Source: a virus (lineage: Duplodnaviria; Caudoviricetes). From it: DNA of 64,000 bases. The translations under genes were made by a program, and so were the position numbers. Where the stretch lies: positions 64,881 through 128,880 of IMG/VR virus record IMGVR_UViG_3300021379_000005, one strand, 5' to 3'. The notes under the pieces are model-generated. The model saw only the letters and a list, made by a program, of their open reading frames with translations. It was not told where the DNA came from and searched no databases. Positions 26,967 to 34,046 of this stretch are shown here, one piece after another (the first letter of the stretch is position 1; each line of letters opens with the position of its first letter).

Positions 26967-27314
26967 TCAGAATGTAAAGCGAACACCAACTGATGTATCT
27001 TCATATTCAAAGTCATGATCTGCACTAATATCACTGTAAAGAGAAAGTGCAGGAGATACTGCATATGAAACTCCCAAATTAACACCGTCAAAATTAATTG
27101 TATCAGATGCTAAGTTACGGTCATATGAAAAATCTGCCCATGGGCGCAGCACCAATCCTTGTGGAAGTGCCATTGTGTATCCTAATTCAGATGTAAATTT
27201 TTCATTTTCCAAACTATATTCAACTTCACCATCTACATGGCCTCTAATGCCTTCTGCCATTGCAGATGTGCATAAAAAAACCGCCGAAGCGGCTCCAACT
27301 AAAAACTTTGTCAT
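26967..27314 (-). CDS. Small outer-membrane beta-strand protein with signal peptide
   Basis: Signal peptide ending SAMA; alternating beta pattern; C-terminal VGVRFTF (BAM-type terminal Phe). Confidence 0.65.
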   Translation of the reverse strand: MTKFLVGAASAVFLCTSAMAEGIRGHVDGEVEYSLENEKFTSELGYTMALPQGLVLRPWADFSYDRNLASDTINFDGVNLGVSYAVSPALSLYSDISADHDFEYEDTSVGVRFTF

Positions 27315-27339
27315 TTATTAAATCCTTTTACTATGACTG

Positions 27340-27719
27340 CGGGCCCGTTTGGTAACAAGGTGGAGCCCATACCCCGCTGATTATGCTGCTAGAGCAAATT
27401 CAGGTGCAAAGTTATCGTTTGCGTTTAGTTTTGTTCGACCGAATATCGTAGGTCAACACGGTAATCTACTCTCATCTCTACACACCTGTCGATCCTAGTT
27501 CGCCCCCATCATAAACACACGAATAAGTAATGGCCCAAATCTATAACTTTTATAAGGATTCCCACTGTTAAATCTAAATTCGCCCCATTGAAAAGGTGTT
27601 CCTTTAAACCAACTAATCCAGTGCCAATCCCAATTCATTATATCCTCATGTGTTTATGGTGGAGGCGTTGGGTACTGCCCCCAAGTCCAGTATGCATGTT
27701 GAATCGTATCAACAATTAC
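27340..27719 (-). ncRNA. ssrA: Circularly permuted two-piece tmRNA; tag ANDNFAPEFALAA (27381-27422); outer ends approximate
   Basis: Acceptor piece ends GGACTTGGGGGCAGTACCCAACGCCTCCACCA (CCA at 27657); coding piece starts GGGGGCGAACTAGGATCGAC (27507); G3:U70 acceptor stem; tag ORF ends ALAA-stop. Confidence 0.93.
27495..27638 (-). CDS. Putative 47-aa aromatic-rich peptide inside the tmRNA intervening segment
   Basis: GAGGA RBS then MNWDWHWISWFKGTPFQWGEFRFNSGNPYKSYRFGPLLIRVFMMGAN. Confidence 0.5.
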   Translation of the reverse strand: MNWDWHWISWFKGTPFQWGEFRFNSGNPYKSYRFGPLLIRVFMMGAN

Positions 27720-27724
27720 AAGTT

Positions 27725-27755
27725 TATTTATACACTATTCTTTTATTTTTGTCAA
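27725..27755 (-). promoter_or_regulatory. Composite promoter for tmRNA: TTGACA-17-TATAAA, whose -10 is also the late motif TATAAATA
   Basis: TTGACAAAAATAAAAGAATAGTGTATAAATA. Confidence 0.75.
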
Positions 27756-27932
27756 GCAAAAAATAATATAAAAAATATAGTGTAATAATACAACACCAAG
27801 AAATTCATACAATACGATATTTTCTTCTGGTGTAAATACCATTAAACTTTTTCCAAATAAACCTAAAAGGAATAAAAGGATAAAGTAAGAAACTATGGGG
27901 ATACACACAAAGTACCCCCAACTTATTTTCAT
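27735..27932 (-). CDS. Hypothetical membrane protein
   Basis: Hydrophobic 65-aa ORF coupled to endolysin stop. Confidence 0.45.
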   Translation of the reverse strand: MKISWGYFVCIPIVSYFILLFLLGLFGKSLMVFTPEENIVLYEFLGVVLLHYIFYIIFCLTKIKE

Positions 27933-28384
27933 ACCATCAGCTCAAAGTGTGGAGCGTCAATAAATGGGCGTCTTCCTTGAGAGCGCCTCAAATCAACATA
28001 GGCGTTCATGGCGTCTTCCATGGAACCATCCCACTCTCTAATGTCATCAATGTGCCAGGCTGCGCCCCAGCGGACTGCTACACCTTCTTCTATTGCAGCG
28101 GCCTTCATTGCGTCTGCAACTTCATCATACACATTGAGTTCCCAGACTCCACGGCCTCCAACATAAGCCATTAAGTCTACTGCAAGTCCGTCAAGATGCT
28201 TACTCTTCATTGTTTGACTTGCACCCTTAGCAACTAAAGCCTCTTGTTCTTCAAGAGTTCTTAAACCTTGGATCACTCCAAAGTCGACCTCAGTCAATTC
28301 GATAGCACGGCTGACAACTCTAACCATGTCATCATGAACACCTTCCAGTTTAGAAAGTGATCTGTTTGATAATTTAAAAGTCAT
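27929..28384 (-). CDS. Endolysin, peptidase M15 (L-Ala-D-Glu peptidase type)
   Basis: LSNRSLSKLEGVH, GLRTLEEQ, SKHLDGLAVDL, RWGAAW, DAPHFEL. Confidence 0.9.
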   Translation of the reverse strand: MTFKLSNRSLSKLEGVHDDMVRVVSRAIELTEVDFGVIQGLRTLEEQEALVAKGASQTMKSKHLDGLAVDLMAYVGGRGVWELNVYDEVADAMKAAAIEEGVAVRWGAAWHIDDIREWDGSMEDAMNAYVDLRRSQGRRPFIDAPHFELMV

Positions 28385-32077: not shown

Positions 32078-32151
32078 TGGCACAGGCGGACAGAATCGAA
32101 CTGCCATCTTCAGTTTTGGAGACTGATGTGTTGCCACTACACCACACCCAT
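32078..32151 (-). tRNA. tRNA-Trp (CCA)
   Basis: Cloverleaf; anticodon loop CT-CCA-AA; TTCGATT T-loop; encoded CCA; G:U-rich acceptor stem. Confidence 0.85.
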
Positions 32152-32156
32152 ATTAA

Positions 32157-32232
32157 TGGTGCCGCTAGAGAGATTCGAACTCCCGACCTACTGATTACAA
32201 ATCAGTTGCTCTACCAACTGAGCTACAGCGGC
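32157..32232 (-). tRNA. tRNA-Thr (TGT)
   Basis: GCCGCTGTAGCTCAGTTGGTAGAGC...TTTGTAA...GTTCGAATC...CACCA. Confidence 0.95.
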
Positions 32233-32420
32233 GTATTTTCTATTTCACTTTCTCTTTTTTTAATCCATTCCTTTAATTCACATACCTTTTCAACATACAT
32301 CATGTATGCTTCATACCATTCTGCATCTCCAGTAAGTATCCATTGTTGACTGCACTGATCGGCGTTCTGAACTAAATTCTTAATTATGTTTTGGTAATTG
32401 TCCCTAAACCCAAGTGACAT
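32223..32420 (-). CDS. Hypothetical protein
   Basis: 65-aa ORF with AGGA RBS. Confidence 0.5.
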   Translation of the reverse strand: MSLGFRDNYQNIIKNLVQNADQCSQQWILTGDAEWYEAYMMYVEKVCELKEWIKKRESEIENTPL

Positions 32421-32561
32421 AACTGTTCCTATTCTTTTAAAGTTAACTCCAACTTAATTAGAATGCATTTTCATAATATATAAATCCTTTTTCACTCCTC
32501 ATCAAATTCACTTAATAGCCAGTGTAACTCAATGAGGAGTGATTGTCAATAGGTAAATTTA

Positions 32562-32828
32562 TTATTTACCGTAACCCTCTGGGCGATAGTAGTATGACGT
32601 ATCCTCACCAGAGAACATGTTCTGCATCGAACCTTCACCATCTGCATCAAAGTCTGCTTTGGTGTTTGCAGATGCAGAGAAGTTCATAGAGAAGGTTGCA
32701 ACACCACGGCCTTCTGCGTCACCGTTCATTGTAGATGATGCGCCACCAGACGAATTGCCATTACCATCATTGATAAATGCAAATGCAGAAGTCGAAGTCA
32801 TTGCCAAAATTGCGATTAAAGTTTTCAT
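32562..32828 (-). CDS. Secreted Gly/Ser/Asn-rich protein (possibly sulfur-globule-protein-like)
   Basis: Signal peptide ending SAFA; GRGVATFSMNFSASA core; Tyr-rich tail. Confidence 0.55.
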   Translation of the reverse strand: MKTLIAILAMTSTSAFAFINDGNGNSSGGASSTMNGDAEGRGVATFSMNFSASANTKADFDADGEGSMQNMFSGEDTSYYYRPEGYGK

Positions 32829-32966
32829 TGTATTTTCCTTGCACCAATTGGTGCGGTAGTGCTAATATATTAGTAAATGATTAATTACTAACAGATACTA
32901 GTATATATCAAAAAAGTATAAGAAATCAAGACTTTTTTGCACAGAAATTTTTTATGGGGTATAAGT

Positions 32967-33251
32967 TTATTTTATGTCGTATAATGTATACTCACATGTA
33001 AGTTCTTCGCCTGGCCAAATATCTCTAGTGGCAACAATAAAGAACCTACTATCTTTTCTAATCTTTACTATATTCGGCTCATCAGAGTGATTATAAAAAG
33101 CACCCAATGGAGTTCTTTGCAATTCTTCTCCCCAATAAAAATGTGACATTCCGATCTCTGTTCCTTCTTTGATCGGTTTTACACACCAAAGGCCAAGTCC
33201 ATGTATACCTGATTTTTTTATTGTTACTTCTTCTGGTAGAGGTTTATACAT
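32967..33251 (-). CDS. SET-domain protein (putative lysine methyltransferase)
   Basis: SGIHGLGLW, NHSDEPN, ATRDIWPGEELTCEY. Confidence 0.88.
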   Translation of the reverse strand: MYKPLPEEVTIKKSGIHGLGLWCVKPIKEGTEIGMSHFYWGEELQRTPLGAFYNHSDEPNIVKIRKDSRFFIVATRDIWPGEELTCEYTLYDIK

Positions 33252-33272
33252 CTTGTGTCCTTACTGTTTATT

Positions 33273-33348
33273 TGGCTCCCAGAGAGGGGTTCGAACCCCC
33301 GACCCAATGATTAACAGTCATTTGCTCTACCAACTGAGCTATCTGGGA
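33273..33348 (-). tRNA. tRNA-Asn (GTT)
   Basis: TCCCAGATAGCTCAGTTGG...CTGTTAA...GTTCGAACC...GCCA. Confidence 0.95.
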
Positions 33349-33360
33349 ATATTCCTAAAT

Positions 33361-33437
33361 TGGTCGGGGTAGCTGGATTCGAACCAACGACCCTCTGCTC
33401 CCAAAGCAGATGCGCTACCAGACTGCGCTATACCCCG
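33361..33437 (-). tRNA. tRNA-Pro (TGG)
   Basis: CGGGGTATAGCGCAGTCTGG...TTTGGGA...GTTCGAATC...ACCA. Confidence 0.95.
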
Positions 33438-33446
33438 ATAAATTTT

Positions 33447-33520
33447 TGGAGCGGATGAGGGGAATCGAACCCCTGTCATTAGCTTGGAAGGCTAAGGTAA
33501 TACCATTATACGACATCCGC
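33447..33520 (-). tRNA. tRNA-Gly (TCC)
   Basis: GCGGATGTCGTATAATGG...CTTCCAA...GTTCGATTC...TCCA. Confidence 0.95.
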
Positions 33521-33724
33521 CTAAACTTCAACATCAACTTTACTAACTGGTTCGACTGTTCTAATCTTTCCAGTTTTGTCGTATGTTCTATAAACTTCTT
33601 CAACCCTAACAGAGTTTCCAAAGTCTTTATGCGTTACTACAATGTTATGAATCTTATCACCGACATTTAGTTGCCTAACATACTCACTCACAATTCTTAC
33701 TGGTGGTACTGGTGATACTTGCAT
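33521..33724 (-). CDS. Hypothetical protein
   Basis: 67-aa ORF with GGAG RBS, inside the tRNA cluster. Confidence 0.6.
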   Translation of the reverse strand: MQVSPVPPVRIVSEYVRQLNVGDKIHNIVVTHKDFGNSVRVEEVYRTYDKTGKIRTVEPVSKVDVEV

Positions 33725-33744
33725 TATAGTAACTCCGAATAAAA

Positions 33745-33960
33745 GGGACAGTAGGTGTTTTTACTTTTAGCAGTTTGAGGGGTTACAGGCCGCTTTATTT
33801 TCTTATACATTAGTCGCCTCTTCCTACTGTCCGCCCCTGTTTAATCTTGTTGGTTTCTAGTGAGGGATTTCCAACTTCCCACCTGAGTCTTCTATTTAGT
33901 GTCGTTTTCAGGCTTAACCGTGTTTTTACTCACTCGACAAATCGAGCGTCCGACTCGCCC
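33745..33960 (-). ncRNA. Candidate structured non-coding RNA(s) in the tRNA cluster
   Basis: GC-richer gap with no listed ORF; 10-bp stem GGACAGTAGG/CCTACTGTCC, further stems and a repeated AGTAAAAACAC. Confidence 0.45.
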
Positions 33961-33969
33961 GATATTAAT

Positions 33970-34046
33970 TGGCCTGCCCTGTAGGATTCGAACCTACGAC
34001 CCACAGCTTAGAAGGCTGTTGCTCTATCCAGCTGAGCTAAGGGCAG
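33970..34046 (-). tRNA. tRNA-Arg (TCT)
   Basis: CTGCCCTTAGCTCAGCTGGATAGAGC...CTTCTAA...GTTCGAATC...GCCA. Confidence 0.95.

Follow-up and report, generated by a model that had tools for sequence, protein, structure and literature searches.

RNase P and tRNase Z have been proposed as the enzymes that process the precursor of a permuted transfer-messenger RNA (tmRNA) (PMC3985003). In the permuted tmRNAs described so far, the intervening segment (IVS) that separates the two pieces has been treated as a non-coding spacer. The available text of the 2025 tmRNA database paper lists only a tRNA-Ala gene, singled out there as unique, and a repetitive element as contents of such segments, and the terms 'ORF' and 'open reading' are absent from it (PMC11915505). 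The ssrA gene of the cultured Methylophilales phage Melnitz has also been described, and in the available text of that paper the word 'intervening' is absent and the IVS goes unmentioned (PMC9004378). No description of protein-coding open reading frames (ORFs) in tmRNA IVSs appeared in the literature we searched, in which older papers or supplements may hold an earlier mention. Here we describe a permuted tmRNA gene in a 64,000-nucleotide stretch of viral DNA, positions 64,881 to 128,880 of the IMG/VR record IMGVR_UViG_3300021379_000005, which we refer to in full as the window. The gene resembles the permuted tmRNAs of alphaproteobacteria and of Melnitz in gene order, Rfam families, alpha-type tag and closing stem, but its IVS appears to hold a conserved protein gene. 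We consider it likely that the segment carries a real accessory gene, that it serves as a permissive and exchangeable cargo slot, and that one transcript acts as an mRNA and then as a tmRNA precursor. This reading builds on the anatomy of the segment, the coding constraint on the ORF, the protein family to which it belongs, the generality of such cargo among phages, and its patchy, exchangeable distribution, all of which are documented below.

The host gene lies on the minus strand and runs from an acceptor piece ending in CCA, through the IVS, to a coding piece that opens with the 5' acceptor strand. Its parts, in the order of transcription, are as follows.

27727..27755, minus strand: predicted sigma-70-type (T4 early-like) promoter, with TTGACA at 27755-27750, a 17-nt spacer and TATAAA at 27732-27727 (sequence reading).
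27657..27719, minus strand: acceptor piece, with T-arm, acceptor-stem 3' strand CGCCUCC, discriminator A and CCA at 27659-27657 (model positions 1-64 of RF04321).
27508..27656, minus strand: IVS of 149 nt, predicted to be absent from the mature tmRNA (an insert in both Rfam alignments; length by script).
27645..27658, minus strand: 5' arm of the extension stem (CAUAAACACAUGAG), which takes in the CA of CCA and the GAG of the Shine-Dalgarno sequence (RNAfold minimum free energy and centroid structures).
27643..27647, minus strand: Shine-Dalgarno-like GAGGA, with an ATG 4 nt further on (sequence reading).
27495..27638, minus strand: 47-codon ORF and its TAG (MNWDWHWISWFKGTPFQWGEFRFNSGNPYKSYRFGPLLIRVFMMGAN) (ORF list; homologues, dN/dS, frame test and AlphaFold).
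27510..27523, minus strand: 3' arm of the extension stem (UUCGUGUGUUUAUG), overlapping ORF codons 39-43 (IRVFM) (RNAfold; sequence).
27338..27507, minus strand: coding piece, with G1 at 27507 and the start GGGGGCG (end as given by Rfam alpha_tmRNA; ARAGORN places it at 27290).
27381..27422, minus strand: tag reading frame, GCA...GCA TAA, encoding ANDNFAPEFALAA and a stop (ARAGORN, gene positions 329-370).

The two ends of the IVS are complementary, and in RNAfold predictions positions 27658-27645 pair with 27523-27510 to form 14 base pairs stacked on the acceptor stem. The minimum free energy of the region is −52.5 kcal/mol (z = −4.3), and none of 200 shuffles was as stable. Such closure is not peculiar to the window: of 127 unique phage IVSs, 110 form a stem of at least 8 contiguous base pairs between their own arms, compared with 95 of 567 pairs that combine arms from different loci, and the closing stem is thus a constant feature of phage tmRNA IVSs. 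The ORF starts with the ATG at 27638 and ends with a TAG at 27497-27495, which corresponds to positions +11 to +13 of the mature coding piece; its last four sense codons (MGAN) and its stop therefore fall within the mature tmRNA. An earlier reading of this locus, made from the sequence only, had outlined the same arrangement of CCA, G1, a segment of about 150 nt with complementary ends, GAGGA, a 47-codon ORF and a stop inside the tmRNA 5' end, and every one of these elements recurs in our analysis at the same place. It had also proposed ARAGORN and the alpha_tmRNA model in Infernal for fixing the ends; a permuted tmRNA was called, and both Rfam models scored above their cut-offs.

The ORF has many relatives, and they vary in the manner of a protein-coding gene. 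A metagenomic protein collection contained 26 protein clusters of relatives at 69-100% identity, and a scan of viral contigs with the peptide alignment returned 76 loci, which reduce to 54 unique contexts. Among 25 unique ORF cores located within an IVS, the mean pairwise synonymous divergence (dS) was 0.72 and the nonsynonymous divergence (dN) 0.094, a ratio of 0.13, with 7, 14 and 25 variable columns at codon positions 1, 2 and 3, respectively. When the aligned IVSs were compared frame by frame, the ratio of nonsynonymous to synonymous polymorphism (pN/pS) was 0.14 for the frame of the ORF, compared with 2.9 and 1.6 for the remaining sense frames. The GAGG and the ATG are retained in most in-IVS relatives, with L189 and L230 as exceptions. 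On these comparisons of sequence, the ORF is a genuine protein-coding gene under purifying selection, and the primary tmRNA transcript would therefore also be an mRNA. The sequence-only reading had taken the ORF for a coding one, and had named a search for relatives with dN/dS and the conservation of ORF and ribosome-binding site as the places to look. It is borne out on each: selection is confined to the ORF frame, the search yielded 76 viral loci with a dN/dS of about 0.13, GAGG and ATG persist in most relatives, and the peptide has both free-standing homologues and a confident predicted fold.

We sorted the 54 unique contexts by eye. The ORF sits inside an IVS with both tmRNA pieces visible in 32 of them, while 4 are cut or partial and 7 are ectopic, lying near a tmRNA gene or with tmRNA remnants (L196, L208, L209, L217, L230, L231 and L249). 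The remaining 11 are distant homologues that occur as plain genes in translationally coupled phage gene arrays (L250-L257, L258-L262 and L263). These free-standing homologues share 47-56% identity with the window peptide, and the phage gene arrays that hold them are unrelated, with no tmRNA nearby. The tail that follows GPLLI.V is not conserved in them; they have their own stops and unrelated C-terminal tails. A profile search with alignment A2 over 1.84 billion representative proteins matched 57 clusters at E ≤ 1e-3, 20 of them at ≤ 1e-10, nearly all 41-60 aa long and sharing the core W.G.PF.W..F.FN.G.PY..YR.GPLLI. The window copy matches profile A3 at E = 9e-27, in an alignment of which it is itself a row. 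AlphaFold, run on a 33-sequence alignment, predicted four antiparallel strands with a predicted local distance difference test score (pLDDT) of 89 and a predicted template modeling score (pTM) of 0.65; a run with 14 sequences (pLDDT 61) was discarded in its favor. As judged from alignment and structure prediction, the window peptide is a member of a widespread phage protein family of about 45 aa with a four-stranded beta-sheet.

Five long proteins of 390-2723 aa (P0057, P0064, P0070, P0075 and P0077) also came up in the profile search and were set aside as spurious members, since they carry unrelated Pfam domains. In each, profile positions of about 6-31 are matched 4-6 times by the motif GLPF.WNG..F, and these repeats are probably a convergent beta-hairpin repeat.

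Protein-coding cargo at this site is not limited to one family. We scanned viral contigs with a pattern for the acceptor piece that includes no part of the IVS, and obtained at least 120 stretches that, with the Melnitz locus, form our IVS set; the cellular comparison set, mostly alphaproteobacterial metagenome-assembled genomes, was collected with the same pattern. Among the matches listed, there are 104 unique viral IVSs with a median length of 95 nt, and 45 are 100 nt or longer. The 115 unique cellular IVSs have a median of 35 nt and include 3 of that length, and the difference in the share of long IVSs is pronounced (Fisher p = 3e-14, viral figures being those among the matches listed). 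Within the same listed matches, 35 of the 45 long viral IVSs hold a sense ORF spanning at least 0.7 of their length, 15 of these with a Shine-Dalgarno sequence; in the cellular set a single IVS holds a long sense ORF and none has a Shine-Dalgarno sequence. The orientation is strongly biased, such ORFs occurring in sense in 37 of 47 long IVSs and in antisense in 3 of 47, again among the matches listed. In many long IVSs, a Shine-Dalgarno sequence and a start codon come first and an ORF fills the segment. The IVS ORFs range from 23 to 82 aa and lack endonuclease motifs. Clustering them yielded at least six other families at the same site that bear coding signatures and are unrelated to the window's, with in-frame pN/pS of 0.22-0.39:

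Hydrophobic 'WSICAD' peptide, 7 unique sequences: pN/pS 0.30 in frame, 0.99 and 1.48 in the other frames.
'ICINNYS' family, 4 unique sequences: pN/pS 0.33 in frame.
'MDREIW' membrane peptide, 7 unique sequences: pN/pS 0.34 in frame (0.30-0.39).
Melnitz-type 'RKADAKIPKYLSG' (family A), 4 unique sequences: pN/pS 0.375 in frame.
'RYLSGVGK' (family C), 3 unique sequences: pN/pS 0.27 in frame.
DUF2061-like ORF of 68 aa, 2 unique sequences: pN/pS 0.22 in frame.

In the L094 cluster, the longest ORF lies in the wrong frame (pN/pS 3.7); it is the MDREIW frame that is constrained. Many of the singleton IVS ORFs are probably chance ORFs. In the cultured phage Melnitz, a different ORF occupies the same place in a 142-nt IVS, and the GenBank record annotates the tmRNA only. 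From these sequence comparisons, the tmRNA IVS of marine and freshwater phages appears to be a previously unremarked slot for small protein genes.

Some segments in the set have contents worth recording in their own right. The 68-aa ORF, which starts with TTG, fills IVSs of 238-239 nt (L088:5967-6170, minus strand, and L104), and it aligns with 51 of 52 positions of the Pfam family DUF2061, a predicted membrane protein, at E = 1.8e-4 and 22.3 bits, where the cut-off is 23.1. Another type of IVS content is found in L100, where the 60-nt segment consists of 2.5 tandem copies of a 22-nt unit (AATGTGCATTAGGACTACTGCC...).

The distribution of the window cassette is patchy. Its IVS is 85-97% identical to those of other carriers, while the flanking tmRNA (70 + 160 nt) is 65-77% identical, and the loci whose flanks are most like the window's (L117 at 89% and L108 at 85%) have a different, shorter IVS. 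Among the 14 carriers with unique flanks that entered the flank comparison and tree, L160 and L177 have identical IVSs and flanks that are 25.7% apart, and for L233 and L235 the divergence is 1.3% between IVSs and 28.7% between flanks. Conversely, the flanks of the carrier L135 are identical to those of the non-carrier L075, and the flanks of L142 are 0.4% apart from those of L121, whose IVS is 29 nt long. Carriage of the cassette takes 11 changes on the maximum-likelihood flank tree, compared with a mean of 13.5 and a minimum of 10 for shuffled labels, and a single carrier clade is rejected by the approximately unbiased test (p = 1.9e-52). Two contigs from separate metatranscriptome studies, X1 record 1 (1644 nt) and X8 record 17 (2713 nt), match the window flanks with 2-7 mismatches, and in them 127 nt of the window IVS are replaced by 17 other letters. 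These contigs therefore represent very close relatives without the cassette.

Several loci preserve traces of how the cassette may have moved. A leftover of the 5' end of the coding piece, 'CUGAGGGGGUCGAAC', persists in the ectopic copies of L196 and L209. The copy in L217 (1460-1660) retains the two stem arms together with about 4 nt from either mature piece, sits between genes of 224 and 46 aa, and is bounded on both sides by a 14-nt direct repeat (ATGATGGAAACCTA); in sequence this looks like a target-site duplication, of which it is a single example. In L230 and L231, a decayed acceptor piece (..GTCCTACCA) and the ORF immediately precede an intact TTGACA-17-TATAAA promoter and a full tmRNA gene, which looks like a partial tandem duplication of the 5' part of the tmRNA gene that moved the ORF outside the functional IVS. 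The ORF of L249 lies just upstream of the tmRNA gene without a pseudo-piece. In three further loci (L228, L234 and L176), about 100 nt of IVS sequence of a second, unrelated kind separate the ORF cassette from the coding piece, and these look like insertions of the cassette into an already occupied IVS. In L221, the 3' arm is duplicated (…GTGTTTATGTAAGCACATGTGTTTATGAT), with the result that the TAA of the ORF lies inside the IVS. The GGTGGAGGC repeats that flank the L208 copy were considered as tmRNA scars and are more simply explained as the Shine-Dalgarno sequences of two coupled genes.

We propose that the transcript works as follows. A strong early-type promoter, its activity predicted from sequence, would drive a single precursor comprising acceptor piece, IVS and coding piece. 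The Shine-Dalgarno sequence and the ATG lie just inside the 5' arm and would stay unpaired as long as the 3' arm, which lies about 125 nt downstream, has yet to be made. Ribosomes would most likely load co-transcriptionally, read the 3' arm and terminate after the first 13 nt of the coding piece. The tRNA-like domain would then fold, RNase P would cut at G1 and a 3' nuclease would trim to the CCA, producing the two-piece tmRNA. If tmRNA function needs the closing stem alone, phages could lodge many unrelated small genes in the IVS, and cargo exchange would most likely proceed by homologous recombination through the tmRNA segments on both sides, which are nearly invariant. One RNA-library contig (X3 record 13, 376 nt) covers 27488-27675, and thus the whole IVS and both processing sites; it is compatible with an unprocessed precursor, or possibly with DNA in the library. 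We rejected two further uses of these libraries: ranking expression by depth over the IVS versus the mature pieces, as the contigs are summed over relatives, and taking the uncovered IVS in X1, X2 and X8 as evidence of processing.

A number of observations weigh against this account. In the folded precursor predicted by RNAfold, the GAG of the Shine-Dalgarno sequence and part of the start region are paired, so that translation from the folded precursor may be poor in this model; co-transcriptional initiation is therefore the most plausible route. The coding claim is drawn from sequence, and the RNA evidence consists of RNA-library contigs that possibly contain DNA. Two of the cargo comparisons were uninformative, namely family F (3 unique sequences, pN/pS 0.69) and a mixed nucleotide alignment of families A and C (pN/pS 1.0). 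With respect to exchange, carriers with more similar flanks tend to have more similar IVSs (Mantel r = 0.615, p = 5e-4); some co-inheritance thus exists, and part of the patchy distribution may be repeated loss. Metagenome assemblers may also switch genomes within shared sequence and so mix left and right flanks, although each junction between flank and cassette would stay real even then. No functional lead emerged for the peptide: no Pfam family matched at E ≤ 1, PHROGs also gave no match, Foldseek returned 0 matches at E ≤ 1e-3 against PDB and BFVD, and the ESM Atlas offered unnamed clusters alone (scores 0.78-0.80). A tblastn search of 50,697 named phage records found no copy, leaving the peptide family without a cultured representative among them. 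Finally, the length of the ORF is not significant in itself, since 16% of dinucleotide shuffles of the IVS yield an ORF at least as long; for this reason length was not used as evidence, and the comparative data decide.

This last point is also what an untranslated chance ORF would have in its favor, its conservation then reflecting an RNA-level constraint on the IVS, and the greater stability of the IVS-region fold relative to shuffles would fit as well. Such a constraint does not account for the accumulation of substitutions at third codon positions, a pN/pS that is low in the ORF frame only, protein homologues at 47-56% identity in unrelated nucleotide contexts, or a family alignment that gives a confident AlphaFold model, and we regard it as extremely improbable. 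The sequence-only reading had offered a parasitic mini-gene in a neutral site as its second option. The permissive site is the part of that idea that comes closest to the data, whereas the ORF is not junk and appears to be a gene under selection. A related possibility is that the arm-bounded cassette is a selfish mobile element that spreads for its own sake, in the manner of miniature inverted-repeat transposable elements or homing cargo, with the ORF helping. Identical cassettes within diverged backbones, the patchiness on the flank tree, the remnants in L196 and L209, and the L217 copy with both arms, the ends of the mature pieces and the direct repeat are what such an element would leave behind. 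However, the arms are present in every tmRNA IVS, with or without an ORF, and so are not specific to the cassette; the direct repeat was seen once only; and a 47-aa protein predicted to be all-beta has no nuclease or transposase motif. The presence of many unrelated cargos in one slot is better explained by recombination through conserved flanks, and we consider a selfish element quite unlikely.

The position of the stop codon invites a different kind of explanation. Read by eye, the stop lies beyond G1 in 29 of the 32 unique in-IVS contexts of the window peptide family, the copies in L221, L228 and L234 being those with a stop inside the IVS. Cleavage at G1 would strip the stop from most in-IVS copies of the family, and to this extent the non-stop logic of the sequence-only reading stands; likely, only the unprocessed precursor gives an untagged peptide. 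From there one can imagine an ArfA-like sensor, in which tmRNA tags and destroys the peptide made from the cleaved message and a stable peptide reports insufficient capacity for tmRNA processing or trans-translation. The window stop at +11 to +13 and its counterparts in the other family contexts suit this model, and it has a precedent in arfA, whose mRNA has no stop codon and is subject to repression by trans-translation (PMC10107115). The TAG, however, is part of a conserved tmRNA motif, GAAnUAGGAUCGAC, and because of this its position follows from the frame and not from a dedicated signal. Many of the other cargo families end within the IVS (at −1, −7, −12, −14 or −15), as do the three exceptional copies, and the free-standing homologues terminate at stops of their own after unrelated tails. 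As a designed feature, the feedback loop that had been suggested is accordingly not supported by these families, and we see only a small chance of it; the overlap between stop and mature tmRNA is most readily explained as a by-product of the frame. Translation might instead matter in cis, with the ORF acting as a leader whose passage through the 3' arm and acceptor strand tunes tmRNA maturation to ribosome availability. The last codons do overlap these elements, and in nearly all families the ORF ends within the final 15 nt of the IVS or further on, where a terminating ribosome would cover or unwind the stem. A leader peptide or attenuator would have a freely varying peptide and an ORF found solely in cis, whereas we found strong purifying selection on the peptide sequence and free-standing genes with no tmRNA nearby; moreover, close relatives manage with a short IVS and no ORF, and such ORFs are missing from cellular tmRNAs. 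A cis-acting leader thus appears improbable, though translation of the ORF may have a side effect on tmRNA processing. A composite of these ideas, in which a dedicated, recombination-driven slot carries cargo whose translation gates RNase P, processing makes a non-stop message, and the peptide level reports the balance between tmRNA maturation, trans-translation and ribosomes, strikes us as unlikely, if not to the same degree. We therefore retain the simpler reading of an accessory gene in a permissive, exchangeable slot.

The host gene itself has the features expected of its class. ARAGORN calls a permuted tmRNA at 27290-27750 on the minus strand with the tag ANDNFAPEFALAA, and the gene scores 123.2 bits against Rfam tmRNA_permuted (RF04321; cut-off 47; 27381-27719, minus strand) and 114.6 bits against alpha_tmRNA (RF01849; cut-off 50; 27338-27774, minus strand). 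The acceptor stem is formed by CGCCUCC-A-CCA (27667-27657) and GGGGGCG (27507-27501), with the third G opposite a U (G3:U), and the tag frame at 27422-27381 ends in a hydrophobic ALAA-type tail and a stop. By every sequence-level criterion, the host gene is a bona fide permuted (two-piece) alpha-type tmRNA. The TATAAA of the promoter ends about 8 nt upstream of the Rfam tmRNA start, and an identical TTGACA-17-TATAAA precedes the tmRNA in Melnitz and in L230. Our promoter consensus scan missed it, as the rule demands a T at position 6 of the −10 hexamer. An Rfam scan of the window returned no intron families at the gathering threshold. No SmpB was found in the record, which at 79% completeness is uninformative either way.

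The source record is 128,880 bp long, with an estimated completeness of 79%, and the window is its second half. It belongs to a T4-like marine phage; among named phages, tRNA and tmRNA matches place it nearest to two T4-like marine myophages, Methylophilales phage Melnitz and Pelagibacter phage Mosig. In Melnitz, a glutamine riboswitch aptamer (RF01739, 52.8 bits; L001:1856-1904) directly follows the tmRNA, as the Melnitz paper reports; no glutamine riboswitch matched at the Rfam gathering threshold in the window. There, the tmRNA is directly followed by a 115-aa ORF (26967-27314, minus strand) with a signal-peptide-like N-terminus and no Pfam match. Two genes upstream of the tmRNA, a 151-aa ORF (27929-28384, minus strand) matches Peptidase_M15_4 at E = 3.3e-6 and 28 bits (cut-off 25); its product, of the D-Ala-D-Ala carboxypeptidase type, is likely a cell-wall hydrolase. 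A hydrophobic 65-aa ORF (27735-27932) lies between the Peptidase_M15_4 ORF and the tmRNA promoter. Six tRNA genes (Trp-CCA, Thr-TGT, Asn-GTT, Pro-TGG, Gly-TCC and Arg-TCT) occupy 32078-34046 on the minus strand, with the tmRNA gene about 4.5 kb away, and the Arg-TCT gene is 92.6% identical to its Pelagibacter phage Mosig counterpart.

Protein-coding cargo in the IVS would be a fourth type of tmRNA-gene content, beside spacer, intron and genomic-island insertion, and the tmRNA precursor would be bifunctional, serving first as an mRNA and then as the precursor of a stable RNA. Since the role of tmRNA is to deal with broken mRNAs, an mRNA that loses its stop upon tmRNA maturation would offer an unusually direct place to test how RNA processing, translation and trans-translation are coupled. 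Annotation pipelines mask RNA genes, so that small proteins encoded in IVSs would be missed systematically, and the Melnitz copy is indeed unannotated. More broadly, short, functionally frozen RNA segments could act as portable homology arms for the exchange of accessory genes in abundant ocean phages. Melnitz on the OM43 strain H5P1 provides a cultured model for a sister ORF family.

Among described systems outside the tmRNA field, the nearest analogue is the IVS in helix 45 of 23S rRNA in Coxiella and Leptospira, where an ORF (S23p) likewise lies in a segment that is closed by a stem and cut out of the precursor of a stable RNA. The S23p protein (PF05635) is helical. The window peptide shows no homology to S23p, no Pfam family having matched it at E ≤ 1. 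The 23S segment also differs in that its host is an rRNA cut by RNase III and its protein is S23p, whereas the tmRNA slot appears to hold many families under purifying selection. In the available text of PMC4990558, the S23p-bearing IVS is regarded as mobile or selfish, and S23p is apparently not made in vivo.

Homing-endonuclease genes in the group I introns of tmRNA and tRNA genes are a second analogue, since they too place a protein gene inside a part of the tmRNA gene that can be removed; intron forms of tmRNA genes that bear them are mentioned in PMC11915505. Those introns occupy a T-loop site and self-splice, whereas the window insert lies between the two pieces and is predicted to be removed by tRNA-processing nucleases; neither an Rfam intron nor a Pfam or PHROG domain was found here. 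The likeness to arfA lies in an endonucleolytic cleavage, predicted in our case, that strips the stop and creates a tmRNA substrate (PMC10107115). In the window, the cut would be made by RNase P in the tmRNA precursor itself, and the arrangement is not general among IVS ORF families or free-standing homologues. With regard to exchange, PeSL elements are gene cassettes bounded by a promoter and stem-loop that are shuffled among T4-type phages via short conserved flanks. The window cassette resembles them as a small accessory gene that appears to be swapped between T4-like genomes through short conserved flanks, and it differs from them in that its flanks are functional parts of the tmRNA and its cargo is carried within the tmRNA gene.

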